The position numbers and the translations under genes were made by a program. From an uncultured bacterium (GTDB taxonomy: Bacteria > Oederibacteriota > JAAXVQ01 > JAUVAV01): a stretch of DNA of 64,000 nucleotides. The notes below the pieces were generated by a model. That model saw only the letters and a list, made by a program, of their open reading frames with translations, searched no databases and had not been told where the DNA came from. Shown one piece after another: positions 29,092 to 43,804 of this stretch. The stretch is taken from positions 64,001 through 128,000 of the forward strand of contig CAVQBK010000003.1 of assembly GCA_963710755.1 (NCBI GenBank), read 5' to 3'. Within the stretch, counting starts at the first letter, position 1. Every line of letters begins with the position of its first letter.

Positions 29092-30260
29092 AATAATCTA
29101 ACCTTATCCGGCGTTTTGCTGGCCCAGCGGTTAAGCGTTTGCTGTAATACTATTCCAATTTCTCCAACAGAGTAAGCCTTAAAATACTTCGGAAAAGCAT
29201 TACGCGCCCAAAGCCATTCTTGCATTAAGTTGGCCAAGCTGGCAGGATCAAGCTTAGGTAAAATGTGTTCCATCAACATCTTTTGGGGCAAGAGCGAGGC
29301 CCAACGGCTGGGCATAAAATTGATAGTGCTGCAAAACGCCAACAGGGGATCAAGGTGTAATCCCGCCAAATCGACGGTCACATTTTTTAATATCTTTACC
29401 AAAATCTCAGGATCTTTTTGGGTCAATGTTTCTAAAATGGGGGGCTGCTGCTTCGAAATGTTGCCCATCATATCAAAGCCGATAAGGCGCAAATGCGCTT
29501 GTCCCGGAAAAGCGATGAATTTATAAAAGGCTTTATCATCACTGTGGTAAAGTAATTCCAATAATTGAATGATTTTGGGGTTTTCCAAGGGCCCCACATA
29601 CTGCGTCACCCACTGGTTGACCTTTTCTATTTCACTTTGATCAATGACTTTTTCCTTGGTGAAATCAAGGGTGGGTAATTGATAACGAAAAAGCCATAAG
29701 TTGACCAGGGCCATAATCAGATCATGATTATCCCGGGTGATCAATTCAGGGTGCTGATTTCTTAAAAATTCCAAGGGTTCTTCGATTTCCTGGCTGATCT
29801 TCATCGGTTCTTCAGGATTGTCGATCCATTGGTTGATATGGCTTTCCAGGTCTTTCCTTTCTCTTTCCACTCGTTTTTTATAACTGTCCAACCAAGACAC
29901 GACTTTCCGGTAAAGCTTTATTTTTTCTTCCTCACCATCGACAGAGCCGGGGCTTTCGCAGTACTTTTCCACAATAGATGTTTGGGCTTGGTCCGTCACA
30001 TCATCGGCAAAGACCCGCCCCGAATTGCCATCAACCGTCACCAGGTAACCAACCTTGGTTTTGACATTTTGTTTTTCAAATTTAATATATTCATCACCCG
30101 CTTTAAAATTGAAGGATGACGATTTCCCCAGGCCCAAGACACAGGGACGCAGTTCATGGGATTCACGCAACAAGGCTGAGGCATGGGAAAACTCAGCTCC
30201 TGATTTTTCCAGCACGGCCACACAATAAGGATTGTTAATCAACTCATCATGAATCTTTTT
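29064..30260 (-). CDS. Middle part of the giant protein: PPDK-like phosphohistidine swivel domain plus unknown region
   Basis: G..FSHAS.L.RE...PCV.G and VTVDGNSGRVF continue the PPDK homology that breaks off at about 30250. Confidence 0.65.
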   Translation of the reverse strand, partial: KKIHDELINNPYCVAVLEKSGAEFSHASALLRESHELRPCVLGLGKSSSFNFKAGDEYIKFEKQNVKTKVGYLVTVDGNSGRVFADDVTDQAQTSIVEKYCESPGSVDGEEEKIKLYRKVVSWLDSYKKRVERERKDLESHINQWIDNPEEPMKISQEIEEPLEFLRNQHPELITRDNHDLIMALVNLWLFRYQLPTLDFTKEKVIDQSEIEKVNQWVTQYVGPLENPKIIQLLELLYHSDDKAFYKFIAFPGQAHLRLIGFDMMGNISKQQPPILETLTQKDPEILVKILKNVTVDLAGLHLDPLLAFCSTINFMPSRWASLLPQKMLMEHILPKLDPASLANLMQEWLWARNAFPKYFKAYSVGEIGIVLQQTLNRWASKTPDKVRLFWQDVELAR

Positions 30261-33200
30261 CCGACCGCTCCACCACCAGTACAAATGGTTCTCTACGATC
30301 GGCATAGTCCATGGCCTGACGCTTGGTGAACACCACACGGCCGGCTTTGATACCCACGGCCGCACCCTGACCCACAGCCGCCAAGGCATGGTCAATTTCA
30401 TCAGGCAAGCGCGGTGCTCTTAAGGACCGTTCCATCCAGATCAAGGTACTTATATCAATGTTTTCAAAAAGGTCTTCCATATTGATAAGCTTGTGATTTA
30501 ACATATGGCGTATCACTTTGATCTTAGCTTCCGGATAAAGTTTCTTACCTGCACTTCTGACCTGTAAAATATAGAGCTTGCCGTCTTCCACGGTGAACTC
30601 AACATCAACCACGTTCTTTAATTGGGTTTCAAAAAATTTAACCCAATGCTGCAATTCGTTATAGACAGCTTCACCAATTTCTTCTTTTAATTGATTAATA
30701 CCATCAGGCGTGACCAAACCGCCCACAATGGCCTGGCCACTGCGGGCTCTTTTCCAGTTGCCGGTCATGCGATTGTCACCGGTTTTAAAATCACGGGAAT
30801 AAACCACACCGGCCCCGGAGTTGTCGTTCTTGCCGCCAAAAACCATTTTCTGGACGGTCACACCCGTACCGGTATTGGGTACATTGAAGCGCTCGCGGTA
30901 GTCTATGACTTCCTTGTCATTCCAAGAATTCATGACCCGCTCGGTAGCGACAGCAAGTTGTTGGTGAACATCTTGGGGAAATTCAAAGCCATGGAGCTTG
31001 ATTTGTTCTTTAAACTCCTCAATCAGCCGTTGCGAATCTGCTTTTTTAAAATAATTGCCCTGCATCTCTTCTGCCATTAGGCCGCGCAATGCTTCAAATT
31101 CCTTGGGATCAATGCCAAAAACCTTGGTGGCAAAGCCTTCGATGGCTGTGGAATAGACGTACCAGGCATAATTCTCATTGTCCCATTGTTTGGCTAGGCC
31201 GTTTACGGTTTCATCGTTTAAACCGAGAAAAAAGACGGTTTCCATCATGCCCGGCATGGAAGTGTCCGCGCCGGAGCGTACGGATACCAAGAGGGGATTA
31301 TCCTTGTCTCCAAACGTTTGGCCTGTATCTTGGTTCAACTGACGTATGCCCCGTTTCAAGGCGGCTTTGTGGGCGAGCAGCAACTTGCCTCTATTGGCAA
31401 TCACCTCCAGGGAAGCTTTGGCGCGCATGACAAAGCCCGGCGGTACCGGTGCCCCCCATAGGCACATGTTGATCAATCCCCGTCCTTTACCGCCGGCGTC
31501 TTTCAAAAAGGCTTCATTAATTTTTGTTTTCATACTCTGATGAAAATTAACTATAAGCGGTATTTTTTTGGAAAGACGGACATGGATAGTCCCTAGTGCG
31601 CCTATGAGCCAAGGCAAAAATTTAAATAAAAACACCAGACCCAGTGCGGCTTCAAAAACCGCTTGCTTTCCATCTGGCGCTTTGCCAGCCAAAACCTTTC
31701 GGCCATCGGTCAGACTAAGAGGAATAAAATTAATCACCGCCAGCAGGGCATTCACCGTCATAGTGAGATGTAACCATAATAAAACCACACCCAGCGGTTG
31801 AAAACTAAGGATGCTTATAAAGGCCGCGGCCGCCAGGCCCGCATTGGCAGCCGGACCGGCCAAAGCCACCAGGCGTACATGATTAATATTCTTTAATTTT
31901 TTCTCATTGATGGGCATGGGTTTAAGCATGGCTAAAATAGGCCACCCGAAAAGATAATGCATGGCTGCCAATGCCAAAGGCAACACGATGGTGCCCGGCA
32001 AGGATATGTGTTTAAAAATATTGAGGGTCAGGCGCCCGGCTTTTTCCGCCGTATTATCGCCAAAGATTTTGGCCACTCGGGCATGGCTGTACTCATGCAA
32101 CGCCAGGGAAAACAAAATGATCAGTACTGCCCCGGCGACCACACCAGCCAACATCATTGCCGGCATCGTGATACCCGGCCAAATGGCAAAATACCATTTC
32201 ACGGCCACCGTCAAAAGACCTAACGCCCCTGCTGCCGAAACCACCGCATGCAACCAAATACCTTGTTTGGTTAATAGAAAATGCTGGTAGTGCTGTATGG
32301 TGGGGTTGGTAGCCAAGAAGGTTGGGATCTTTCGCCACAATTTTAATAATGGGGTCGCAGGGTGAAGGAATACCTCAACCGCCTCCCGCGACACGCCTTG
32401 TTTCCTAGCAGACCTAGATGCAACCCACGCTGTTTGCAGACATTGATCATAATTATCAAAAAAAACGATGGTCCATTGAGAAAAATGCTCCACCGTGCCC
32501 CACGGCGTACCCTCCCGGCCCTTCAGCCTCCGGGGAGTAATTAAGGCCCAAACCTGGTGCGGAGGACCCTTTGGATCTTGAACCGCAATGGGGTGTATCA
32601 CCATACCGGCTGGAAGTTTTGCCCTGGCATCGGTGTCAGGCCCGTTATCTTGGTTGGCAGCAAGAATTTGCTGCTGTTGGGGGGGGAGTTTTTCCCAAGC
32701 TGCCCGGGCCAAAGCGTCCAGGGTTAACTCAACACTTTGCCGATACAGCATTGGATGAGCCTGTGGCCACAAAGGCGGGGCCATGTTGGTTTGAGTGCGA
32801 ACCAGTAACTTTTCCAAAGGCAACAGCTTGTCCTGCAAAATATTGAAGTACGGATTGATCATGTCGGTTTTGGTCACTGTGGGCCTGATGACCACGTAAT
32901 TCATGCCTTGCTGTTTAAGGGCCTTCAGCACGCCCTGGCGGTGAAAACCGCCCATAATCAGCACGGCCAAATCTTCATGACGCTGCAACAGACGCTGCTT
33001 CACATTGGCTGCAAAGGCCAGACTGCGTTCATCAGCCAGGCGGTAAAAGGTTCCCACCTGCCGGAGATAGTCGTCCAGTCGATAAAGCTCCGGTTCGACC
33101 CCATCGCCAATCTTTTTTTGCTGAGCAATGAATTGCAAAAAAGCAGCCATACGATAATCCTCAGCATGTGCTTGGTAGGCGGCCCATTCCTCATTGGAAA

Positions 33201-34137
33201 TGGAAATACTGAGCATACGCCCAATCATCTCCGCCCGCGCCAGCAGCTGATCCAGTTTCATTTCCTGCGGCGTTTGATATAACTTCTGCCTGATGGCTTG
33301 ATCGAGGCGCTCCAAATCCTTGCCGGCCGGTTCCATGTCCTGAGGGGCGATCTTGCCATCATCCAGCCGTTCCAGCAGCTGTTGCTGACTGTACTCCAGA
33401 ATGAGCTTAACCCTCCTGGCCCACAGTCTGAGGAGGCGGGCATAGGCTCTAATGGTGAGCTTATTGTTTCGGAAATCTGTTTTCAGCCCATCAAAGGCGT
33501 AAAGCGCCTTGTGATAAACAGAAGACTTCAAGTCCTTTAACCGATCTTGCAAGTCCGCCACCAAGCCCTGGGTTTCCATGTTTAAAAAAGCTTTAACCGT
33601 GTGGTGCGCCTTCTGGTAAAGAACTTGATTTTCCACACCGAAAAGTTCCACCTCCGATGTCTGCCCGGCCGCAAAATATTCCGCGCCTGTCAGCTTGCCT
33701 TGTTTCATAAAATAATCCGCCGCCATTTGCCGCAACCAAGCAACGGGAAAGGTACGCAGCGGACCGAGATCCACCGTTCCGCTGCCGCCTTCCAACCCAA
33801 TGATTCCAATATCTTGTGACTTAAGAAGTCGGGTTAAAATAGAGGCAATGTTCTTTTGCACTTCGTAATGGCAGTGCAGATCTTCAATACAGATAATCGT
33901 TTGACCTGATGATCCCTGATAGCGGTCCTGCACGCGGCCAATGGCTTCGGGCAACTGTAACGGTTGCTTCAAGGCTCCCCAGACAGGCAAGGTATGGGGG
34001 GGGGACTTATAGACGATGGGATTTATGGTCCAGGCCAGGGCAGGCCATAAAAAAGTGGTGATCAGCATAAGGACGATCATCCGCCGGATGGCGGCGTAGG
34101 AACGGATGAAAAGATGAGAAAAACATTTATTGGTCAT
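30247..34137 (-). CDS. N-terminal part of the giant protein: signal peptide, large N-terminal domain, M50 site-2 protease, PPDK nucleotide-binding domain
   Basis: EDLHCHYEVQKNI, GLEG, GKLTGAEY, GGFH; LHEYSH..AGP.AN..NFIP...TDG; GGKG, PVPPGF, LLVSVRSGA..SMPGMM, DVEFTVEDGKLYILQ.R; ATG 34137. Confidence 0.8.
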   Translation of the reverse strand: MTNKCFSHLFIRSYAAIRRMIVLMLITTFLWPALAWTINPIVYKSPPHTLPVWGALKQPLQLPEAIGRVQDRYQGSSGQTIICIEDLHCHYEVQKNIASILTRLLKSQDIGIIGLEGGSGTVDLGPLRTFPVAWLRQMAADYFMKQGKLTGAEYFAAGQTSEVELFGVENQVLYQKAHHTVKAFLNMETQGLVADLQDRLKDLKSSVYHKALYAFDGLKTDFRNNKLTIRAYARLLRLWARRVKLILEYSQQQLLERLDDGKIAPQDMEPAGKDLERLDQAIRQKLYQTPQEMKLDQLLARAEMIGRMLSISISNEEWAAYQAHAEDYRMAAFLQFIAQQKKIGDGVEPELYRLDDYLRQVGTFYRLADERSLAFAANVKQRLLQRHEDLAVLIMGGFHRQGVLKALKQQGMNYVVIRPTVTKTDMINPYFNILQDKLLPLEKLLVRTQTNMAPPLWPQAHPMLYRQSVELTLDALARAAWEKLPPQQQQILAANQDNGPDTDARAKLPAGMVIHPIAVQDPKGPPHQVWALITPRRLKGREGTPWGTVEHFSQWTIVFFDNYDQCLQTAWVASRSARKQGVSREAVEVFLHPATPLLKLWRKIPTFLATNPTIQHYQHFLLTKQGIWLHAVVSAAGALGLLTVAVKWYFAIWPGITMPAMMLAGVVAGAVLIILFSLALHEYSHARVAKIFGDNTAEKAGRLTLNIFKHISLPGTIVLPLALAAMHYLFGWPILAMLKPMPINEKKLKNINHVRLVALAGPAANAGLAAAAFISILSFQPLGVVLLWLHLTMTVNALLAVINFIPLSLTDGRKVLAGKAPDGKQAVFEAALGLVFLFKFLPWLIGALGTIHVRLSKKIPLIVNFHQSMKTKINEAFLKDAGGKGRGLINMCLWGAPVPPGFVMRAKASLEVIANRGKLLLAHKAALKRGIRQLNQDTGQTFGDKDNPLLVSVRSGADTSMPGMMETVFFLGLNDETVNGLAKQWDNENYAWYVYSTAIEGFATKVFGIDPKEFEALRGLMAEEMQGNYFKKADSQRLIEEFKEQIKLHGFEFPQDVHQQLAVATERVMNSWNDKEVIDYRERFNVPNTGTGVTVQKMVFGGKNDNSGAGVVYSRDFKTGDNRMTGNWKRARSGQAIVGGLVTPDGINQLKEEIGEAVYNELQHWVKFFETQLKNVVDVEFTVEDGKLYILQVRSAGKKLYPEAKIKVIRHMLNHKLINMEDLFENIDISTLIWMERSLRAPRLPDEIDHALAAVGQGAAVGIKAGRVVFTKRQAMDYADRREPFVLVVERSEKDS

Positions 34138-34345
34138 GGTTAAATCCTGCTTAAAGAAAGTGCAAGGCAGAGCAGAGGGCAAAGTTGGTCAACTATAACA
34201 AAAGCAAGATAAAGGGCCAAATTAAAATATGAGACTCCCTATATATTCTGATTTCCAACCCGGTCTTGGTTTTAATCTGAAACAAAGCAAGTTGTGATTT
34301 TTGTAGTAATACCTAACCCCTCATGTCGATACCTCTGCTTGGTCA

Positions 34346-34374
34346 TTGACAGGCTTTTTACCCCATGCTAGGCT
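34346..34374 (+). promoter_or_regulatory. Putative sigma70 promoter of ygiD
   Basis: TTGACA-17 nt-TAGGCT with an extended TG. Confidence 0.6.
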
Positions 34375-34414
34375 TGGACCAGCATCACTCACTGAAATAA
34401 CCAAGGGTGATCTC

Positions 34415-35230
34415 ATGGATAATCAACCTCTGCACCATCTACGATCGGCCTCCCTTCCCATGCCCCTTTTATTTCTGGGCCATGGGACACCCATGAATGC
34501 GATTGAAAACAATGAATTTAGCACCAATTGGCGGATCTTGGGCCAGCGTTTACCTGCACCCAAAGCGATTGTGGTGGTCTCAGCCCATTGGCAGACGGAA
34601 GGACTGACCGTAACCACCAGTGACCAGCCGGAAACAGTCCATGACTTTTGGGGCTTTCCGGAGATCCTGAACCGTTTTGTCTATCCTGCTCCAGGAGCCC
34701 CGGTCTTGGCGGAAACCATTAAACACCAGCTGACCATGGCGAAGGTGCGATCGGACCCTGACCGGGGTTTGGATCACGGCGCCTGGTCGGTGCTGGCCCA
34801 CCTATTTCCAGCGGCCTCTGTGCCGGTGATCCAAATCAGCCTGGACTGGCGTCAATCCCCGGGGTTTCATTATCAACTGGGACAAGACCTCGGCTTTTTA
34901 AGGCAACAAGGTGTATTGCTGGTGGGTAGCGGCAATGTGGTGCATAATCTCGATCTAATCGCTGATCAGCAGAAGGGATTTGATTGGGCGGACCAATTTG
35001 CACTGGTTGTTAAAAAGGCTCTGGAAAAGGAAGACCACCAGGCCTTGATTGACTACGAACATCTCCATCCTGCCGCTCATCTGGCGGTGCCCACCAATGA
35101 ACATTATTTGCCCATGCTCTTTATCCTTGGGGCAACCCAGCCTGGAGATCAACGCATACTTTTCTCAGACCGCTGCACTATGGGCTCTTTGTCCATGCTC
35201 AGCTTTTTATACTACCAGGAAGCTGGTTAG
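34415..35230 (+). CDS. ygiD: 4,5-DOPA extradiol dioxygenase (LigB family)
   Basis: LFLGHGTPMNAI, VSAHW, HDFWGFP, GLDHGAW, GSGNVVHNL, PTNEHYLP. Confidence 0.92.
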   Translation: MDNQPLHHLRSASLPMPLLFLGHGTPMNAIENNEFSTNWRILGQRLPAPKAIVVVSAHWQTEGLTVTTSDQPETVHDFWGFPEILNRFVYPAPGAPVLAETIKHQLTMAKVRSDPDRGLDHGAWSVLAHLFPAASVPVIQISLDWRQSPGFHYQLGQDLGFLRQQGVLLVGSGNVVHNLDLIADQQKGFDWADQFALVVKKALEKEDHQALIDYEHLHPAAHLAVPTNEHYLPMLFILGATQPGDQRILFSDRCTMGSLSMLSFLYYQEAG

Positions 35231-36192
35231 GCACCCTTACCGCCGGGGACAAGGTCGTGCACCTCACGAATGATTTTTTCAGCTTCCAGGGCGGCAATGG
35301 TGCCGTCGGCCACAGCCGTGGTAATCTGACGGTATTTTTTCTCGCGCACATCCCCAATAGCAAACACACCGGGCTGACTGGTGTGCATCAATTCGTCGGC
35401 AGCAATATAACCCTGATCATTTAGATGGATCTGGTCTTTCACCAAACCGGTGCGTGGTACAAAGCCGGCGTAAACAAATACCCCGTCCGTCGCCAGATGC
35501 TTGCGCTGGCCGGTTTTTAAATCCTCAACTTCCACTTCTTCCAGCTTGGTTTCACCCCGGTAGGCTCGGGGCTCATGACAACACATAAATTCAATTTTGG
35601 GATTCTTTTGGGCATTGTCCACTGCCAAGGCACTGCTTTGGAAACCGTCAAACTGATGCACAATGGTGACCTTTTGGGCAAATTGAGTTAAAAACACGGC
35701 TTCTTCCAGCGCCGAATTGCCACCGCCCACCACAACCACTTGTTTATCCTGATAAAAATCAGCATCGCAGGTGGCACAATAAGACAAACCCCGGCCTTTA
35801 AAGGTCTGCTCGCCCGGCAGGCCCAGTTGCCGCGGCTCCTGGCCCATGGCCAAAATAACAGCCGGCGCATAGAGGGTTTCTTCTTCATCGAGTTCCACGC
35901 TTTTACGGCGTTCCGTCAAGGACAACCCTGTGATCTCAGCGGCATTATAAAAGGTGACGCCATAGTGCTTGGCCTGCTCTTCCATCAAGCGGGCCAGTTC
36001 CTTACCCCGGATCTCCGGGTAGACCCCGGGATAATTGGCCACCAGGTGGGTGGTTTTCATCCATCCGCCGGGAAGATTTTCTTCCACCACGGCCACATCC
36101 AATTTGGCCCGACCTGCATACAAGGCCGCGGTTAATCCGGCTGGTCCTGCGCCAATGATAATTAAATCATGTGATTTGGTCATATCATTCAC
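35227..36192 (-). CDS. trxB: Thioredoxin-disulfide reductase
   Basis: IIGAGPAGLTAA, GRGLSYCATCDA, VGGGNSALEEA, GVFAIGDV, QITTAVADG. Confidence 0.95.
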   Translation of the reverse strand: MNDMTKSHDLIIIGAGPAGLTAALYAGRAKLDVAVVEENLPGGWMKTTHLVANYPGVYPEIRGKELARLMEEQAKHYGVTFYNAAEITGLSLTERRKSVELDEEETLYAPAVILAMGQEPRQLGLPGEQTFKGRGLSYCATCDADFYQDKQVVVVGGGNSALEEAVFLTQFAQKVTIVHQFDGFQSSALAVDNAQKNPKIEFMCCHEPRAYRGETKLEEVEVEDLKTGQRKHLATDGVFVYAGFVPRTGLVKDQIHLNDQGYIAADELMHTSQPGVFAIGDVREKKYRQITTAVADGTIAALEAEKIIREVHDLVPGGKGA

Positions 36193-36511
36193 CTACCAGT
36201 TGCTCGATGGCGCCCTTAATCTCTGATTTTTTGATCTCTCCCGACAGACGCTGGCCCTGCTCCTGACCATCTTTGAAAAAGACCAAGGTAGGACTGCCGC
36301 TGACACCCAGTTTTTCCGCCAAATCGCGGTTGCCTTGACGGTATATTTTTAAAAACTTCACCCGGTCGCCAAAGCTCTGTTCCACAGCTTCGTATTTGGG
36401 TGCCAAGGCTTCACATGGCGGACAATCGGTGGAAAAAAAATCCAATACCGCCGCTTGCCCGGTTTGGATAACCTCTTGTTCAAATTGGTCCTGATTAATT
36501 TCTTTCACCAT
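36185..36511 (-). CDS. trxA: Thioredoxin (CPPC active site)
   Basis: Real start ATG 36511 after AGGAGG; LDFFSTDCPPCEALAP, cis-Pro SPTLVFFKDG. Confidence 0.9.
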   Translation of the reverse strand: MVKEINQDQFEQEVIQTGQAAVLDFFSTDCPPCEALAPKYEAVEQSFGDRVKFLKIYRQGNRDLAEKLGVSGSPTLVFFKDGQEQGQRLSGEIKKSEIKGAIEQLVGE

Positions 36512-37892
36512 GATAGGGAACCTCCTGTATTTTTTTGAGCAGGTCTTCATAATAAAATTCCAAGCCCGCCTGCATGATGGCGCCAATGGGTTTGCAGTCA
36601 GGCGCCAACAAGGACCCTTGTTGGACGTGGGCCAAGACACCGCAACCGCCGCCACAGGCAGGCGCCACACTGCAGGTGCTGCACTCGGCAATGGTCTGCA
36701 CCCGGCGCGCTTGCCAGGACTTGGCGGCCTCCTGCAAATGCCAAACCGGATCATAACTGCCCAGAGCATAAGCCGGCTGACCCAAAGTGGCGGTGCAACC
36801 GTAGATCTTACCGCTCATATCAAAACCCCATTCATGTTTGGCCGCCGGGCAGGCGTCAAAGCGGGGCGTCAACATTTCTTCCTGCTCAATCCATTCTTTG
36901 AGCCCGTAAAAAGAAGGCTGATGAAAACGGCGCAGCAGCCGATTATCTTTGGCCATGGCCACAAATCGTTGATAAAGCCCGTCTTGCGTCAACAGGTCCT
37001 GGGGACAGCCGTAGGCGTCGTAAAGCTCGTAATTGCGGCCCAGCTGAGTCTTAAACCGTCCTGCCGGCTGATCAAGCCAGCCGTGCTCCTCGGCCAACTG
37101 CGCTAATTCCACCAGACCGTTCATATTGCCGTGATCAAGCACTACCCTGAGATTGATGGACATCCCGGTCTGCAACGCCAGATCAATACCAGCCACAATT
37201 TTGGCAAAGGTGGGTTCCTTGGTCTTGGTCATGCGGCGCTGATCATGCTGCAATGGTCCGCCGTCCAGCGTCACCTGAATTTCCTTGATCGGCCCCTGGC
37301 TAAGGTCCTCCATCCATTCCTGCAGACGATAGCCGTTGGTGACCACCGCCACGGCCAGGCTGCGCGCCTGTGAAGCAGCTATGATTTTTTGCACAATGCG
37401 CTTCAACCCGGTCCCTTGGCCCAGCGGCTCTCCGCCAAAGATGGTCACAAATTTTTCCCGGCCTTGCCCAACCGGTGCGTCCAGGGCCATTTCCACCTGG
37501 CGCTCGGTCATAAGACCTTGCTGCTGATACGAGCGCTGGTAACAATAGGAACAGGCTAATTCACAGGCATAGGTGGGCACCAGCAGGAGTTGCACCGGCG
37601 TTTGTCGGTACACTTCGTCAAACGCCGTTTGTTTTTGCTGCAAGTAGTTTTGTGCCTCTTGGTAGGTAGTGAAGTAATAATGATGGTCCAAAAAATCCTG
37701 GGTGACCGGGCCGGCCTTTTGATCACCGCCCAGCACCCGGGCTTCCTGGTCATCCACCAAGTGAAAAGCCCCTGAAAGCAGATTCACGGCTACCTGGGAT
37801 CTGCCGGCGATGGGCGCCGGCAGCTTTAACAGCAGCGTATGGGGACTGGCCACGTGAGACTTGGCCCCCGTGCTGCCACCAGTCTTAGTCAT
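36495..37892 (-). CDS. Radical SAM/SPASM domain protein (peptide maturase-like)
   Basis: CELACSYC, FGGEP, TNGY, QVTLDG; SPASM CPA...GC...CSTCSVAPACGGGC...C; N-terminal RRE-like extension; ATG 37892. Confidence 0.92.
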   Translation of the reverse strand: MTKTGGSTGAKSHVASPHTLLLKLPAPIAGRSQVAVNLLSGAFHLVDDQEARVLGGDQKAGPVTQDFLDHHYYFTTYQEAQNYLQQKQTAFDEVYRQTPVQLLLVPTYACELACSYCYQRSYQQQGLMTERQVEMALDAPVGQGREKFVTIFGGEPLGQGTGLKRIVQKIIAASQARSLAVAVVTNGYRLQEWMEDLSQGPIKEIQVTLDGGPLQHDQRRMTKTKEPTFAKIVAGIDLALQTGMSINLRVVLDHGNMNGLVELAQLAEEHGWLDQPAGRFKTQLGRNYELYDAYGCPQDLLTQDGLYQRFVAMAKDNRLLRRFHQPSFYGLKEWIEQEEMLTPRFDACPAAKHEWGFDMSGKIYGCTATLGQPAYALGSYDPVWHLQEAAKSWQARRVQTIAECSTCSVAPACGGGCGVLAHVQQGSLLAPDCKPIGAIMQAGLEFYYEDLLKKIQEVPYHGERN

Positions 37893-38010
37893 GGCAGCCG
37901 GCGATCGTTTTACTTTCCTTGGCACAGCACTGGGCTGTTTTCAGGCTTTGGCAGCATTTTTTTTCAGTTTTAAATTCCTCTTTTTTCTTGCCGGAAGTGA
38001 ATGTAATCAT
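37885..38010 (-). CDS. Small Cys-rich peptide, putative RiPP precursor: MITFTSGKKKEEFKTEKKCCQSLKTAQCCAKESKTIAGCHD
   Basis: Translated by hand (below the ORF-track cutoff); AAGGAG RBS; ATGA overlap with the upstream stop; its end overlaps the radical SAM start. Confidence 0.85.
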   Translation of the reverse strand: MITFTSGKKKEEFKTEKKCCQSLKTAQCCAKESKTIAGCHD

Positions 38011-38627
38011 GGGGTAATCTCCTTTTTTACAATAATATGAACGGACTCAAAAGCCACGTTCCTTTTCCTATATGATCTCAGAGATGTCATGGCTGGGGAT
38101 AAAAACCCGGCCGCTTTAAACAGAGTGACCCACTCGGCCTTGGTAATGCAGCCGCCGAAACAGTCGGCCCTGGCCTGCGGATCCTGCCGGGTAGTTTCGG
38201 GCAAGGGGTCTTCAGTAACCGGTTCGGCAATCACCGCCGTGGCGCCCCATTTTAGCACCCGGTAAATCTCCTTTACAACCGTCAGTTTGTCCCAGGCGTG
38301 ATTAAGGCTGCAGTCGGCCACCACCCAGTCAAACTGCTGGTCCGCAAAAGGCAACGCTTCCATTCGGCCCAATCTCCACTCCACCCGGCCGTCGGGATCA
38401 AGCGCCCGGGCTCGGTCCAGCATGGCCTGGGTGGCATCGAGCCCCACCAAAGTGGCCTCCGTCACCTCGCCTGCCAGACCCCTGAGCAAGCTGCCTTGGC
38501 CGCAACCGAGTTCCAGCAACCGTTCTTGGGGCTGCAGGGCAATACGGGGGCGCAGGTTTGGCGAACAGCTTAAACAAGTATCTTGCCCAGCCAGAGCGGT
38601 ATAACGCTGGTGCAAAGGATCGGTCAT
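38007..38627 (-). CDS. ArsM/AS3MT-like SAM-dependent methyltransferase
   Basis: CLSC near the N-terminus, LELGCGQG, ADCSLNH (ArsM SNCVINL position), DCFGGC (ArsM GCxxGA position); GGAGG RBS. Confidence 0.8.
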   Translation of the reverse strand: MTDPLHQRYTALAGQDTCLSCSPNLRPRIALQPQERLLELGCGQGSLLRGLAGEVTEATLVGLDATQAMLDRARALDPDGRVEWRLGRMEALPFADQQFDWVVADCSLNHAWDKLTVVKEIYRVLKWGATAVIAEPVTEDPLPETTRQDPQARADCFGGCITKAEWVTLFKAAGFLSPAMTSLRSYRKRNVAFESVHIIVKKEITP

Positions 38628-38660
38628 GAAGAGACCTCCAGAACGCTAGTATATTAGCTT

Positions 38661-38687
38661 ATTATAATGTTCTTATCTTATTGTCAA
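38661..38687 (-). promoter_or_regulatory. Putative promoter of the methyltransferase-peptide-radical SAM operon
   Basis: Consensus TTGACA and TATAAT on the minus strand, but with a short 15-nt spacer. Confidence 0.5.
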
Positions 38688-38716
38688 GTGTTTTTTGACG
38701 GGGCGGTCCTAATAAA

Positions 38717-41700
38717 TTATGAGACCAGCCGCCTCACGGCCACCAAGGTAATGTCGTCGTCTTGTGATTCCATGAAGGTTGTCACGGATTTGAGGATTTG
38801 TTGCAGCAGCTCAGGACAGGTCGCGGCCGCTTGTTCCTGCAGCACGGTTTCCAATCGCTGCATTTGGTATTGTTCCCGTTCGGCATTGCGGCTTTCCACC
38901 GCGCCATCGGTATAGAGCAGCAACACATCCCCGGGCTGAAGCACAAAGGTGCCGGTCTTGGTCATTTTCTCAATCTCCGGTTTAATGCCCAGCCAAATAC
39001 CTTCCGTATTAATTGCCTCCACCGTAGCGCTGGCCGCCCGGTAGATCAACAGGCTTTCATGCCGTCCGGCGTAGGCAAAGCGGCCGTGGCCTTCGTGACA
39101 AAGGGCTACGAAGGTCATATATTCATTGGCCTGCAGGCGGTTGCGAATATTGTCATAGAGGGTATGGTTGAGGGCAATGATTAACTGCCGTGGATCCATG
39201 CCCGGCTGATGCACCAGGCTATTGGTCATCGCTTGCGCCATCATCATGATCAGCCCCGGGGTAACCCCGTGGCCGGTGACATCGCCCACAAAGAACCATT
39301 CCCGTTCCTGACGGTCACAAATGAAATCAAAATAATCACCGCCCACCTCTTCTGCTGGTTGCATCAGGCCTGCAATCTCAAAGTGGGGGTTATCATAGTG
39401 CTTGGGCAAAATGGCCGTCTGGATCTGCTGTGCTAATTCCATCTCCCGTTCCAGTCGCTTTTTTTCCACCATATCCTTGGCCAAAGTGGCATTTTCTATG
39501 GAGATGGACGCCTGGGTCAAGAGCACATTCAGCACTTCCAGGTCTTCTTCATTGAACACATCGCCGACCAGAGGATTGTCCAGGTAACATACTCCAATGG
39601 TTTCTTGGTGATGTTGCAGAGGGCTGGCCAAGATGGATTTTAAACTTTGACTGCGTACATCTTCCAACTCTTGGAAGCGCTCATCCTCCATGGCGTTGGC
39701 CGTCAGGATATAGCGCTGCTTGTCCAGCACCTGCTCGACAATGGCGCGGGAGACCGCCACCTCCTGACCGGGCGTGTCGTTTTGCCCGGTGTCTTGCTGG
39801 GCCACATTAACCAGCGTACCGGTGGGTTTGTCCTTCAAAAACAAATACCCCCGCTGGGCACCGGTAATGGCCACAGCCTTAGTGATGACCGTCTCCAACA
39901 ACAGATCAAGATCGAGGATGGAACTGATGCTTTGGGAGACATCAATAATAGAGGACAGGCGATTGCGGTTGATGATTTTCTGGGAAGTGCTCATGGTTGT
40001 TTCCGGGATGTCGACCAACGCTTTGAGCCGTTCCATGTAGGCAGCGGAAGAAATGGCTTCAAAGCGGCGGTAGGCAAGCTGCAGTTGTACCTGGGCTTCA
40101 TCTTCCTTGTGCAGGCTTTTCAAATATAAGCCGTACTCATAATGACTGCGGCCCTGCTCATAGGCACGTTCCAGTTTTTCCTGGTGACGAATGCTGGCCT
40201 CAAAGGTTTGTCGGGCCAGTTTGGGTTGATGATGAAGAGCGTAATATTGAGCGGCCAGCCTGAGGCTGCAGCCATAGCTCACGGGCCAGGCTTTGTTTTT
40301 TTTGAGGGCGGTTCGGCAAGCTTGGCCGATCCTGGCCAGCGCGCGCCGTTGGGCTATAGACCCGATGTCACTGCTGTTGGGAAAAGCCTGTTGATACTCA
40401 CGGATCAATAACTCGGCCACATAATTGTATACATAAACCGTATAGGTCTTGAGAAAATGATTTTTTTCATAGAGCGCTTTACTTTCCATAATAAAGGCCC
40501 GGGCTTGCGTAAGATCGCCCAACTCCATGTAAACTTCGCCCAGCATAAAGCAGAGTTTGCATTGCAAGAAAGCCACCCCGTGAGTTTTGGCATGCTCATA
40601 GCCTTGAAGACCCTGGCTGAGGGCATCCCCAAAGTCACCCAGCGTATAGGCCGTACGCATACCATTGATATAGGAGCTGGCAATATTATAATGATTCTGA
40701 GTACGATAGGCACTGGCGCGGTACTCGGCCACCATTTCGGGCATGTCCTTCAGATTCGCCAGGTACAGATTGCTTTTCATCACGCCGTTGACACTCATAT
40801 AGTACTCGCGTGTATCCCCGATGCGTTTAAAGGTGGCGATGGACTGCTGAAAATACTCATTGGCTTTACGGAACTGGCCGCTCCACTGGTGAGCAAAGCC
40901 CATAAACTGCAGGGTTTCGGCCATACCGGCAATATTATCCTCCTGCTTATGCAAAACGCGACTAGACTCCAGGACCGTCAGCGCTCCGGGGAATTTGCCA
41001 ATGGCCATGAGCAAGGAGCCGAACATGGTTCTGGCTTCAGCCAGATCAAGGCCCGTGGTTTCGGACCAGTTTAATTTAAATAATATGGTACGGATATATT
41101 TGAGCAGATTGCTGATGATATAGCCCCAAGTTAGGGCGCGCAAGGTTTTGATGACGATCTCCTCGTAGCGCCGGTTTTTGGGTTTTTTCGTATCCAAAAA
41201 TATCTTGGGCAAGCGGACATGGAGCCCATGAATGATTAATTCCTTGAGAATGCTAAAAATGACAGCCGGTGGTTTCACTGGAAAAGGCAAGCCCCGTTCC
41301 TTCATCAGCTGAGCCACCATTTCCTCCTGCTTGGCAAACTCCCCTTTTTTCAAATAAGCCTGGGTCAGATAGTTATAATAATCGGCCCGCTGCACCTTGT
41401 CTTCACTGGCGTTGAGTAGATCGTTGAATAAGGTGATGGCCTCGTCGGTTTGGCCGATCAGCAACTTGATTTCACCCACCTGAAAATGACAATCCTGCCA
41501 CAAGGTCCGGTCGTATTGGCCTTGGGAACGTTTCCTATGCAACACAGCGGACGCAGCTTCCAGATATTTCAGGGCATCTTCATTGGCGTAGTTGGCTTTG
41601 GCTTTGATCCCGGCGCGGTAGCAATAGTGCAGAATTTTGTCATCATCGCCGCATTCTTTATAGTGATAAGCCAGGTCAAACAAAGTCTCGCCCTGCGGCT

Positions 41701-43804
41701 CCGGTTCTTTTCGCTCCATGGCCTGGGCCACTTGGCGATGCAGGGTTTGACGTCTGCCTTCGGCAATGCTCTCATAAAAAGCCTGATTGATGCGATCGTG
41801 TACAAAAATAATCTTATCCCGTTCAAAACTGTCCTGTTCCAACAGTTGTAATTCATGGGCTTTGTCGATGATCTCAATTACGTCCTGCTTGGAATCGGGA
41901 CTGAGATCAAAGAGCAACCCCAGTTTAAACGAACGCCCTACAACGGAGGCCAGGGAGAGCAATTCTTTCTCCTGCGTTGAGAGCTTCTCAATGCGTTTGA
42001 TAATGATATCCACCGCCTGGCGGGGTACACTCACAGTCTGCAGACGAGCCGTATTGATCTGCCAGCCGCTTTCGCTGTTAAAAATTACCTGTTCTGCGGC
42101 CATTTGTTTAATAATTTCCAAACTGAAAAAAGGATTGCCTTTACCCTGGCGGTAGATAACTTCCGCCAAAGCCCGCAGCCCTGCCGGTTGGTCATGCAAT
42201 ACATGACTGACCAATTGTTCCACGTCATCCAAATGAAAGGCCTGCAAATTCAATTGACTTAAAGGCAGGTGGGCCTCTGCCGCCACGGCCTGCAGGCGGC
42301 TTAGGGAATGGCCGTCACCCACTTCATCTCGGCGATAGGTACCCAGCACCAGCAGCGGATGTTGGCCGATGTCCTGCATCAATTCTTCCAGCACACTGAG
42401 ACTGCCTTCATCAGCCCATTGCAGGTCATCAAAGAAGCAGACCAAGCCTTTTTCCATTTCAGCCAAGGTGAATAAAAAGGTTACCACCGTGGCAATAAAC
42501 CGCTTGAGCTCATTGTCAGCAGACAAAGACGCCAAGGGCGGGCATTCGTCCAGGAGTAGGGCCATACCCGGATGAATGTCGAGGATGATCCGGCCCAATT
42601 GACCCACCGCTTTTTGCAGCCGCGATTGGACCACCTCTTTTCTGGAGGCTTCAAATTTATTAAAAAGGTTGAGATAATTATCCAGCATTTCCTTGATGAT
42701 GCTGTAAGGCACTTGATTGTGGCTGGCAAAAAATTTACCTTGTAAAAAGATCTTATTTTGAGTCTGCACATCATTGCGCACTTCTTCCACCAGGCGAGTC
42801 TTGCCTTGCCCGGATTCTGCGCCAATAAAGAAAACCGAACCTTGCCCGTTGTAGGCCTGTCGCAATACTTGGCGCAAATGGGTTAGTTCCAGCGAACGTC
42901 CCAATAGCCCGGTGCGGAAGTTCAATTTTTTAAGCTTGTCCTTTTCACCGAGCCCAAAGCTTTCTTCGCCAGCCTTTAACCGTTCCAGATCTGCTATCAA
43001 GCCTTGTGCGGTTTGATAACGGTCTTCCTGATCTTTTTCCAGCAGCTTCATGATAATTTTTTCCAGCATAACCGTCAGATCGGGATTGAGCTTGCCTGGC
43101 GGAGTCGGAATTTTGGCAATGTGTTCATGAATGATGTCCGTAGCCGTCTGCCCGGTAAATGGTGGCTGCTGGCAGGCCAACGTGTACAACACCGCGCCCA
43201 GAGAATAAAGGTCGCTCCGTTCGTCAATGCTCTTTTTGATAATTCCGCCCTGTTCCGGCGCCATGGCACCAAAGGTGTCCTGACAATTCTGCTGTAGTTT
43301 TAGGGTGGTGAACTCTTTAACCTGCGCCAGGCCAAAATCAGTAACTTTAAGCCGGCCCTGCTCATTATAGAGGATATTGCTGGTCTTAAGGTCTTTGTGA
43401 ATGAGGCCGGCTTCATGGCAAACCGCCAAAGCCCGTGCGGCCTGAAGCGCAATGGCCATGATTTCCTGTTCACTAAAGTGACGCCGTTCTTTGAGATGAG
43501 CCGCCAGGCTTTTGCCGTCAAAGACCTCCATAACCATGAGGTAATGCTCTCGATGCTTGTCAATACTTTCAAGGTGGATCAAGCCTTCATGTCCGAGCTG
43601 GCTGGCAGCGAGCGCTTCTTTTTTAAAACGGATGTAATCTTCCACTTTGGTTGAAATCATTTCCGGTTTGAGGATTTTAATCGCTATTTGGTGGTGCTCT
43701 TGGTCGCTTGCCTTGACCGAATAAACCTGGGACAAACTGCCTTCACCCAGCAGAGTTTCAAAAGCATACTTGCCTTTAAAGTATTCGGTGATCAGTTGTT
43801 CCAT
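38717..43804 (-). CDS. Ser/Thr kinase - AAA ATPase - TPR - GAF - SpoIIE/PP2C phosphatase multidomain signalling protein
   Basis: LGEGS, AIK, HKDLKTSNIL, DFG, APE; GAESGQGKT, DDLQWAD, GNPFF; GAF; EVGGDYFD, GDVTGHG, LYTDG, DDITL. Confidence 0.93.
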   Translation of the reverse strand: MEQLITEYFKGKYAFETLLGEGSLSQVYSVKASDQEHHQIAIKILKPEMISTKVEDYIRFKKEALAASQLGHEGLIHLESIDKHREHYLMVMEVFDGKSLAAHLKERRHFSEQEIMAIALQAARALAVCHEAGLIHKDLKTSNILYNEQGRLKVTDFGLAQVKEFTTLKLQQNCQDTFGAMAPEQGGIIKKSIDERSDLYSLGAVLYTLACQQPPFTGQTATDIIHEHIAKIPTPPGKLNPDLTVMLEKIIMKLLEKDQEDRYQTAQGLIADLERLKAGEESFGLGEKDKLKKLNFRTGLLGRSLELTHLRQVLRQAYNGQGSVFFIGAESGQGKTRLVEEVRNDVQTQNKIFLQGKFFASHNQVPYSIIKEMLDNYLNLFNKFEASRKEVVQSRLQKAVGQLGRIILDIHPGMALLLDECPPLASLSADNELKRFIATVVTFLFTLAEMEKGLVCFFDDLQWADEGSLSVLEELMQDIGQHPLLVLGTYRRDEVGDGHSLSRLQAVAAEAHLPLSQLNLQAFHLDDVEQLVSHVLHDQPAGLRALAEVIYRQGKGNPFFSLEIIKQMAAEQVIFNSESGWQINTARLQTVSVPRQAVDIIIKRIEKLSTQEKELLSLASVVGRSFKLGLLFDLSPDSKQDVIEIIDKAHELQLLEQDSFERDKIIFVHDRINQAFYESIAEGRRQTLHRQVAQAMERKEPEPQGETLFDLAYHYKECGDDDKILHYCYRAGIKAKANYANEDALKYLEAASAVLHRKRSQGQYDRTLWQDCHFQVGEIKLLIGQTDEAITLFNDLLNASEDKVQRADYYNYLTQAYLKKGEFAKQEEMVAQLMKERGLPFPVKPPAVIFSILKELIIHGLHVRLPKIFLDTKKPKNRRYEEIVIKTLRALTWGYIISNLLKYIRTILFKLNWSETTGLDLAEARTMFGSLLMAIGKFPGALTVLESSRVLHKQEDNIAGMAETLQFMGFAHQWSGQFRKANEYFQQSIATFKRIGDTREYYMSVNGVMKSNLYLANLKDMPEMVAEYRASAYRTQNHYNIASSYINGMRTAYTLGDFGDALSQGLQGYEHAKTHGVAFLQCKLCFMLGEVYMELGDLTQARAFIMESKALYEKNHFLKTYTVYVYNYVAELLIREYQQAFPNSSDIGSIAQRRALARIGQACRTALKKNKAWPVSYGCSLRLAAQYYALHHQPKLARQTFEASIRHQEKLERAYEQGRSHYEYGLYLKSLHKEDEAQVQLQLAYRRFEAISSAAYMERLKALVDIPETTMSTSQKIINRNRLSSIIDVSQSISSILDLDLLLETVITKAVAITGAQRGYLFLKDKPTGTLVNVAQQDTGQNDTPGQEVAVSRAIVEQVLDKQRYILTANAMEDERFQELEDVRSQSLKSILASPLQHHQETIGVCYLDNPLVGDVFNEEDLEVLNVLLTQASISIENATLAKDMVEKKRLEREMELAQQIQTAILPKHYDNPHFEIAGLMQPAEEVGGDYFDFICDRQEREWFFVGDVTGHGVTPGLIMMMAQAMTNSLVHQPGMDPRQLIIALNHTLYDNIRNRLQANEYMTFVALCHEGHGRFAYAGRHESLLIYRAASATVEAINTEGIWLGIKPEIEKMTKTGTFVLQPGDVLLLYTDGAVESRNAEREQYQMQRLETVLQEQAAATCPELLQQILKSVTTFMESQDDDITLVAVRRLVS

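Follow-up and report, generated by a model that had tools for sequence, protein, structure and literature searches.

Radical S-adenosylmethionine (SAM) enzymes paired with methyltransferases of the ArsM type are known from the pathways that lead to arsinothricin and to arsenosugars. ArsM enzymes bind As(III) through conserved cysteines, which in CmArsM are C72, C174 and C224 (a fourth, N-terminal one being C44), and their turnover in vitro is supported by thioredoxin (Trx) and thioredoxin reductase (TrxR); ArsD, for its part, binds As(III) via Cys12, Cys13 and Cys18. Other radical SAM enzymes, the peptide maturases of the CteB and PapB type, adjoin a short Cys-rich precursor and carry a SPASM motif for two auxiliary clusters (C-x(9-15)-G-x4-C ... 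CX2CX5CX3C ... C). Here we describe a locus in which these elements come together. It lies in a stretch of 64,000 nucleotides, hereafter the window, from an uncultured bacterium of the phylum Oederibacteriota (GenBank assembly GCA_963710755.1, contig CAVQBK010000003.1, positions 64,001 to 128,000 of the forward strand), in which five closely packed genes on the minus strand, at 35227-38627 of the window, encode an ArsM-like methyltransferase, a Cys-rich precursor peptide, a radical SAM/SPASM enzyme, a Trx and a TrxR. Judged from its sequence and conservation, this cassette is a real, widespread and self-contained unit resembling those that make ribosomally synthesized and post-translationally modified peptides (RiPPs). 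It falls within a known kind, the radical SAM/SPASM RiPP cluster, and has a fair prospect of proving to be more than that.

A conserved precursor gene in a widespread cassette

The cassette was traced by scanning one genome per species, 185,579 species genomes in all, with an alignment of radical SAM homologues. Among 598 pattern matches there were at least 590 relatives; recurring in hundreds of species of anaerobic bacteria, the cassette is not rare. The locus counts given in this work refer to the best 80 of these at least 590 relatives.

The precursor gene (37885-38010, minus strand) encodes 41 aa, MITFTSGKKKEEFKTEKKCCQSLKTAQCCAKESKTIAGCHD, and has an AAGGAG 8 nt 5' of its ATG. The peptide consists of a short Lys-rich leader and an invariant C-terminal core, AQCC-x-K-x-S-x4-GCH-D/N, which the stop codon follows directly. 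A first-pass annotation of this DNA had singled out the open reading frame (ORF) as a hidden gene with its own ribosome-binding site, and we recovered it with exactly the sequence quoted there. The same annotation placed a radical SAM/SPASM enzyme beside a Cys-rich precursor in a self-contained operon; this agrees with the CteB-like sequence and fold of the enzyme (see below) and with the retention of the peptide beside homologous radical SAM genes, as an ORF ending in QCC[AS]K...GCH[D/N/E] and a stop codon is present in 73 of the 80 loci, from at least eight phyla, usually between the methyltransferase and radical SAM genes. Seven loci have no such ORF, and in two of them (L036 and L037) the radical SAM gene stands at the edge of the locus and the upstream DNA is missing. 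Over the 16 codons of the core, in 73 distinct nucleotide versions, the summed column entropy was 8.0, 4.9 and 22.9 bits for the first, second and third codon positions, and the eight invariant residues freely use synonymous codons. Because the 41-aa ORF is conserved in 73 of the 80 loci and varies at third codon positions, it is, on this comparative evidence, a real gene. The first-pass annotation had named a lack of conservation beside homologous radical SAM genes as grounds for refutation, and the data clearly contradict such a lack. The conservation of ORF and synteny across phyla, together with this coding signature, also rules out a chance adjacency of a non-gene ORF and housekeeping enzymes, a reading whose probability is practically negligible even though the peptide has no family model and no RNA run was among the sequencing-run matches.

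A profile built from 30 peptides retrieved 1442 protein clusters. All of the 120 database peptides listed among them carry AQCC[AS]K-x-S-x4-GCH[D/N] at their extreme C-terminus, and every name shown for these 120 clusters is "hypothetical protein". The core ends exactly at the D/N-stop in 79 of 79 cores from the loci, as it does in the 120 listed peptides. The first-pass annotation had drawn attention to vicinal Cys pairs in the peptide, and this was right for the second pair, which is universal and forms with the last Cys an invariant CC-x9-C triad; these are the only universal Cys of the peptide, the first pair being lineage-specific. No model matched the peptide in Pfam and NCBIfam scans, and five peptides compared with NCBIfam at E <= 10 likewise hit no family. 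A protein atlas search with the peptide gave only uninformative matches, all below 0.8, and a search of the 80 loci for selenocysteine versions found none.

In Myxococcota the peptide ORF lies upstream of the Trx gene, often in two copies. Five loci of this phylum (L041, L044, L046, L072 and L073) have two peptide genes, one 5' of the Trx-TrxR pair and the other several kb off, not flanked by the methyltransferase and radical SAM genes.

A CteB-like radical SAM/SPASM enzyme

The gene after the peptide (36495-37892, minus strand) encodes a predicted radical SAM/SPASM peptide maturase of 465 aa, counted from ATG 37892. The list of ORFs had its start at GTG 37925, inside the peptide ORF; this start was rejected, as the N-termini of the homologues in our alignment A1 fit ATG 37892. 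Pfam recognized Radical_SAM (2.4e-17) and also Fer4_12. The CX3CX2C motif of the radical SAM cluster (C110, C114 and C117) is invariant in 18 of the 18 sequences of A1, and so is the seven-Cys SPASM motif (C348, G361-x4-C366, C404-x2-C407-x5-C413-x3-C417 and C433). None of the named NCBIfam equivalog cut-offs was reached, the bit scores being 124 against 525 for TIGR04463, 109 against 340 for PapB, 108 against 600 for CefB and 63.8 against 425 for the SCIFF maturase. As these named maturase models all score far below their cut-offs, the enzyme is, by this measure, a member of a subfamily without a model in NCBIfam or Pfam. The best sequence match in the PDB is CteB (5wgg; phmmer 1.1e-7, residues 33-419), which also leads the Foldseek search with the predicted structure (mean predicted local distance difference test, pLDDT, 89.6; 5.3e-17, template-modelling scores 0.64/0.68), followed by SuiB and anSME. 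At the N-terminus of the model, strands at 19-28, 31-37 and 42-46 precede three helices, a beta3-alpha3 arrangement with the topology of a RiPP recognition element (RRE).

A short methyltransferase with three ArsM-like cysteines

The first gene of the cassette (38007-38627, minus strand) encodes an ArsM-like SAM-dependent methyltransferase of 206 aa, with the Rossmann SAM motif ELGCGQG and a Pfam match to Methyltransf_31 (3.4e-23). Its top NCBIfam matches are all to ArsM-type families, none of them at cut-off; the weak matches include the ArsMs of the arsinothricin and arsenosugar pathways and the RiPP methyltransferase ApyS. Three Cys are kept in the family, C21 in 75, C106 in 77 and C156 in all of 78 homologues. 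In the alignment with CrArsM (chain 5evj), C106 and C156 fall on the Cys of its SNCVIN and ECLAGA stretches; they also align with Cys of a canonical-looking ArsM domain in a fusion protein of the same genome, described below. C21 belongs to an LSCG motif, which, going by the position of the motif, we take to be the counterpart of GCGNP in ArsM and thus of C72. The fourth, N-terminal Cys of ArsM is not conserved (C18 in 27 of the 78 homologues). In a Foldseek search with the predicted structure (pLDDT 94.1), ArsM and AS3MT structures took ranks 2-14, with TMq of 0.72-0.79. A complex prediction for the methyltransferase and the peptide scored 0.03 against a mark of 0.32 and carries no weight either way. 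Sequence and model together point to a short, three-Cys, ArsM-like enzyme with a putative activity in arsenic methylation.

A private thioredoxin system

The Trx gene (36185-36511, minus strand) encodes 108 aa with the active site CPPC. The protein is recognized by Pfam (Thioredoxin, 4.3e-22) and lies below the NCBIfam cut-offs. The usual active site of Trx is CGPC; in 66 of 67 homologous matches to the cassette protein it is CPPC, CAPC or CSPC. The TrxR gene (35227-36192, minus strand) encodes 321 aa if GTG 36192 is the start and 318 aa if ATG 36183 is, with a CATC redox motif that is kept in 65 of 65 homologues. It scores 341.6 bits with TIGR01292, just below the cut-off of 343.45, and TrxRs of the PDB match it at E = 1e-75; the start at ATG 36183 fits the alignments with these PDB proteins better than GTG 36192. 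HRRxxxR is the NADPH motif of TrxR. At the site where the solved NADPH-dependent enzymes carry HRRDxLRA the cassette protein reads HQFDGFQS, and this HQF type (HQFDxFQ) is found in most lineages; most of the Myxococcota homologues retain HRR(D/E)GFRA or a close variant. The replacement of HRRDxLRA by HQFDxFQ suggests that the electron donor of the cassette TrxR could be other than NADPH. In several loci a single fusion protein combines Trx with TrxR.

Conservation and neighbourhood of the cassette

Using tblastn in the 80 loci, we found the methyltransferase in 77, Trx in 66 and TrxR in 65, and the three loci without the methyltransferase are all cut by the end of the contig or of the locus. 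The full set of methyltransferase, radical SAM enzyme, Trx and TrxR is present in 63 of the 80 loci, nearly always on the same strand, in keeping with the proposal of the first-pass annotation that the cassette has its own reductant supply. The gene order is methyltransferase-radical SAM-Trx-TrxR in 41 loci and Trx-TrxR-methyltransferase-radical SAM in 19. When the flanking ORFs were clustered, no accessory family was present in more than 10 of the 80 loci, the commonest being an IS1595-type zinc ribbon (10), DUF302 (7), a CcdA/DsbD-like membrane protein (5) and an ArsR-type regulator (5). These families included no conserved protease or exporter, and no client oxidoreductase is conserved in the neighbourhood of the 80 loci.

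Phyla form coherent groups in the radical SAM tree. The nearest relative among the 80 loci, L001, is from Candidatus Firestonebacteria, with 62-68% identity for the radical SAM enzyme, Trx, TrxR and the peptide and 43% for the methyltransferase. L047 and L056 stand for relatives of Desulfitobacterium and Anaeromyxobacter. In the sample taken from the window's own phylum the distribution is patchy: of the 41 genomes searched, 5 have the radical SAM gene, namely the window's own, 3 of the 10 other members of its family and 1 of the 4 that represent a second family. The layout also occurs in Prolixibacteraceae (L022, L031, L033 and L043), which we take to be the family that holds Roseimarinus. 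The first-pass annotation had mentioned a report of an arsM-peptide-SPASM arrangement in Roseimarinus; we did not find this report in open-access full text or in bioRxiv, nor any description there of the cassette, of GCHD together with radical SAM, or of DUF5714, although subscription journals may hold one.

Operon layout and flanking genes

The five consecutive minus-strand genes are where the first-pass annotation had placed them. It had each gene overlapping the next, which is so for the first three junctions: the stop of the methyltransferase gene and the start of the peptide gene share an ATGA (4-nt overlap), the end of the peptide gene overlaps the radical SAM gene (ATG 37892) by 8 nt, and the 3' end of the latter overlaps the start of the Trx gene by 17 nt. 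At the Trx/TrxR junction it depends on the start codon, since GTG 36192 gives an 8-nt overlap and ATG 36183 a 1-nt gap. Of the range that had been given, 35227-38687, the lower limit is correct, and the genes end at 38627, position 38687 being the first base of a TTGACA box.

This box belongs to the upstream region of the operon (38628-38716, minus strand), where reading by eye gives a TTGACA at 38687-38682, a 15-nt spacer and a TATAAT at 38666-38661 upstream of the methyltransferase gene, as well as a GGAGG 7 nt 5' of its ATG. The promoter scan accepts spacers of 16-18 nt only, and the pair is not among its sites. The promoter and terminator scan gave no more sites than shuffled sequence, and an Rfam scan of 34900-39100 returned a single chance-level match, below the gathering score. 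In a search of public sequencing runs no RNA run was listed; one soil-metagenome DNA run contained 0.26 of the sampled words.

On its downstream side the operon is bounded by a convergent gene on the plus strand (34346-35230), which overlaps the TrxR stop by 4 nt and encodes a homologue of the LigB-type 4,5-DOPA extradiol dioxygenase; its product matches NF007914 at 276.9 bits, above the cut-off. Two very large minus-strand ORFs flank the operon, one of 1311 aa (30247-34182) and one of 1695 aa (38717-43804), and the product of the latter shows protein-kinase-like motifs at its start, read by eye.

A second radical SAM/ArsM coupling and the distribution of Cys pairs

About 23 kb from the cassette, at 61095-63998 on the minus strand and running off the window, lies a second gene that joins radical SAM, ArsM-like and DUF5714 parts. 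The 1043 aa encoded by the full ORF (L089:596-3727, minus strand) fall into three parts, of which one is radical SAM/SPASM, one ArsM-like and one a zinc ribbon with DUF5714. With NF008823 the ArsM-like part scores 208 bits, below the cut-off of 263, and it has the motifs GCGSP, SNCVINL and ECLGGA; the DUF5714 part matches the "metal-binding" MbdU model NF045648 at 120.6 bits against a cut-off of 600. Between the radical SAM part and the cassette enzyme the identity is only 23%. This architecture is found in at least 348 protein clusters, with names that include "DUF5714 domain-containing protein", "methyltransferase domain-containing protein" and a generic radical SAM/methyltransferase label from JGI. 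The gene has pgi upstream (read from the translation of L089:3767-5407) and gnd-zwf-pgl downstream, and we saw no obvious peptide partner beside it. In 28 of the 80 cassette loci the radical SAM enzyme has DUF5714 as a C-terminal fusion, or its gene is directly followed by one for DUF5714 (for instance, L013:4902-7205); the window's own cassette is without it. As the fusion and the cassette-associated DUF5714 both recur, Cys-rich partners are repeatedly linked with radical SAM chemistry and with methylation of the ArsM type. The fusion is a second, independent coupling of radical SAM and ArsM-like parts, which strengthens the putative link to arsenic.

The extra CC pair is distributed in a suggestive way among the loci. 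A vicinal pair upstream of AQCC is carried by the peptide in 43 loci, in 41 of which the methyltransferase has none or one Cys before LSCG, and a Cys-rich tail is never present on the methyltransferase in these 43. In the 28 loci whose peptide has no extra pair, the methyltransferase reads CCLSCG in 25 and has a Cys-rich C-terminal tail in 16. A vicinal CC pair sits on the peptide in the first group of loci and on the methyltransferase in most of the second.

Discussion

The gene content of the cassette, its conservation, the motifs and the folds are established by the analysis, and from them we propose a mechanism in which the chemistry of the cross-link, the intracellular role, the metalloid substrate and the coupling to Trx are supplied by inference. 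The 41-aa product would be the substrate of the adjacent radical SAM/SPASM enzyme, its Lys-rich leader being bound by the RRE-like domain at the N-terminus of that enzyme. The CteB-like fold and the seven-Cys SPASM motif suggest cross-linking through Cys, so that the enzyme could make, by analogy with CteB, PapB and QhpD, at least one thioether between a core Cys and a carbon of another core residue; the invariant K, S, H and terminal D/N are the candidate acceptors. As no protease or exporter is conserved, the matured peptide would remain inside the cell, probably as a thiol-bearing carrier or cofactor. The methyltransferase, with its three conserved Cys, would bind a soft, thiophilic substrate, the leading candidates being As(III) and methyl-As(III), and methylate it via SAM, and the CC...C triad of the peptide could present this substrate or receive it. 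Finally, Trx (CPPC) and TrxR would re-reduce the disulfides formed in each turnover, as they do for ArsM in vitro. Taken as a whole, this combination of a cross-linked intracellular peptide, an ArsM-like methyltransferase acting on a thiophilic substrate and recycling by Trx/TrxR is a tentative proposal that falls a little short of being probable.

Several observations weigh against this mechanism. The first-pass annotation had linked the operon to arsenic and its methyltransferase to ArsM. The second part holds for the fold and the conserved Cys triad and does not hold for the score, as the best NCBIfam match, the arsenite methyltransferase model NF008823, gives 96.9 bits against a cut-off of 263 and covers positions 73-238 of 272. 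The protein also lacks the C-terminal domain of ArsM, ending at residue 206 where the ArsM chains of the PDB have 377-387 residues; its best sequence match in the PDB is the sugar O-methyltransferase 6uv6, and folds of the AtmM/RebM type match its model as well as ArsM folds do. The neighbourhood gave no backing to an involvement of arsenic: the families conserved across the 80 loci include none of ars transporters or reductases, and regulators of the ArsR type were seen in 5 loci. A direct sign of arsenic appears nowhere in the analysis, and the link to it is by inference only; the same applies to the loading of arsenic on the peptide, or the cross-linking of the peptide, that had been suggested. 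Moreover, were each of the three core Cys to end as a thioether, the peptide would have no thiol with which to bind a metalloid. In the enzyme that would make the thioethers, the N-terminal 100 residues of four members matched no Pfam family at E <= 10, PqqD included. Trx and TrxR are both absent from five loci with full 5-kb flanks (L005, L007, L030, L034 and L042), and the counts, coming from the best 80 of at least 590 relatives, may overstate conservation in remote ones. The complementary distribution of the CC pairs was rejected as statistical support, with only two state changes for the peptide and four for the methyltransferase on the radical SAM tree.

The main rival to this mechanism is a RiPP in which no metalloid takes part. 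The peptide would be cross-linked and then S-, N- or O-methylated by the methyltransferase to give a signal or an antibiotic; the Cys of the methyltransferase would serve in substrate binding or structure, and Trx and TrxR would keep the five Cys reduced or feed the Fe-S enzyme. The methyltransferase fits such a role in being, by its sequence, a generic class I enzyme (best PDB match 6uv6) that lies far under the ArsM cut-off and counts ApyS among its weak NCBIfam matches, and the lack of conserved ars genes nearby points the same way. However, a secreted product would need a protease or exporter and none is conserved, and the three Cys at ArsM positions are kept across phyla. A co-conserved and often fused Trx-TrxR pair is not known to be usual in RiPP clusters, and the fusion of radical SAM, ArsM-like and DUF5714 parts does without an obvious neighbouring peptide. 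We consider this explanation unlikely, but a serious contender.

Alternatively, the product could be a peptide-derived intracellular redox or thiol cofactor, comparable to mycofactocin or PQQ, in which GCH(D/N) is remodelled (by a Cys-His or Cys-Asp link, or by decarboxylation), the methyltransferase acts in tailoring and Trx/TrxR is the dedicated reductase. The strict end of the core at D/N-stop, in all 79 cores of the loci and all 120 listed database peptides, the absence of a conserved exporter or protease, the presence of mycofactocin and quinohemoprotein maturases among the NCBIfam matches of the radical SAM enzyme and the unusual pyridine-nucleotide motif of TrxR are in its favour. It leaves without a reason, however, the ArsM-type Cys triad in a tailoring enzyme; no client oxidoreductase is conserved in the neighbourhood of the 80 loci, and the radical SAM enzyme is nearest to thioether formers and not to MftC or PqqE. 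A cofactor of this type is therefore improbable.

It has also to be considered that the peptide itself could bear arsenic, being loaded with As(III), given a C-As bond by the radical SAM enzyme and then methylated on the bound arsenic by the methyltransferase. The C-As natural products known from radical SAM and ArsM pairs, the invariant CC-x9-C triad of the peptide and the coupling of radical SAM and ArsM-like domains twice within the window are consistent with this, but there is no known precedent for the formation of a C-As bond by a SPASM maturase and no direct evidence for it here, and thioether formation is more parsimonious for this fold. This sequence of steps has, in our opinion, very little chance of being correct. 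There is a small chance, in a broader formulation, that the product of the cassette is the first ribosomal peptide to bear arsenic, or to carry it obligately, whose CC-x9-C would chelate As(III), to be fixed by the SPASM enzyme through a C-As bond or a thioether cage and methylated by the methyltransferase, with Trx and TrxR recycling. If that were true, such a peptide and the DUF5714 fusions would together define a hidden branch of anaerobic biochemistry, in which compounds of arsenic or of another soft metalloid are handled on a peptide or protein template.

The cassette is of interest in two fields. For the study of RiPPs it offers a new precursor class whose fixed partners, a methyltransferase of the ArsM type and a thioredoxin system of its own, are unusual. 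To arsenic biogeochemistry it presents a concrete candidate route for arsenic handling or methylation in strict anaerobes; that many arsM-carrying anaerobes methylate poorly in culture is a long-standing puzzle. That this genome holds a second, independent architecture of radical SAM, ArsM-like and DUF5714 parts points to the joining of radical chemistry and ArsM-type methylation as a general theme.

Comparison with described systems

The methyltransferase shares with ArsM and AS3MT the SAM fold, and the Cys of its SNCxxN and CxxG stretches are aligned with those of ArsM. It differs in its length of 206 aa, in the missing C-terminal domain and in the fourth Cys, which is not conserved, and its activity is putative. 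The arsinothricin (ArsL and ArsM) and arsenosugar (ArsS and ArsM) pathways resemble the cassette in pairing a radical SAM gene with an ArsM-type methyltransferase, but the cassette enzyme would be a SPASM peptide maturase with a precursor and not a transferase of SAM fragments, and Trx and TrxR are added.

ArsM-like methyltransferases beside Cys-rich, redox or metal-binding partners are also a feature of Haft's SAO system, of DVU_1556 and of MbdU/DUF5714; a 2026 review of the selenoproteome attributes the naming of MbdU and related families to Haft & Tolstoy 2025. The cassette methyltransferase scores 78.3 bits with the DVU_1556 methyltransferase model NF045667, against a cut-off of 155, and in contrast to these systems a MerB-like lyase and an ABC transporter are not conserved in the 80 loci, and no selenocysteine variants were found in them.

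Mycofactocin (MftA, MftB and MftC) is similar in that a short precursor carries its conserved motif strictly at the C-terminus, is matured by a radical SAM/SPASM enzyme and gives a product that stays in the cell, no exporter being present. The cassette is nevertheless without analogues of MftB, MftD and MftE, its radical SAM enzyme stands nearer to the enzymes that form thioethers, and its core is rich in Cys where MftA ends in Gly-Val-Tyr.

The closest likeness is to the maturases of the CteB/SCIFF and PapB type, with which the cassette has in common the CX3CX2C motif, a seven-Cys SPASM motif, an N-terminal beta3-alpha3 arrangement and an adjoining short Cys-rich precursor. The radical SAM enzyme is, however, only 17% identical to CteB, the core AQCCxKxSx4GCH(D/N) fits no model, and to the pair of maturase and precursor the cassette adds, always, an ArsM-like methyltransferase and, usually, Trx and TrxR.

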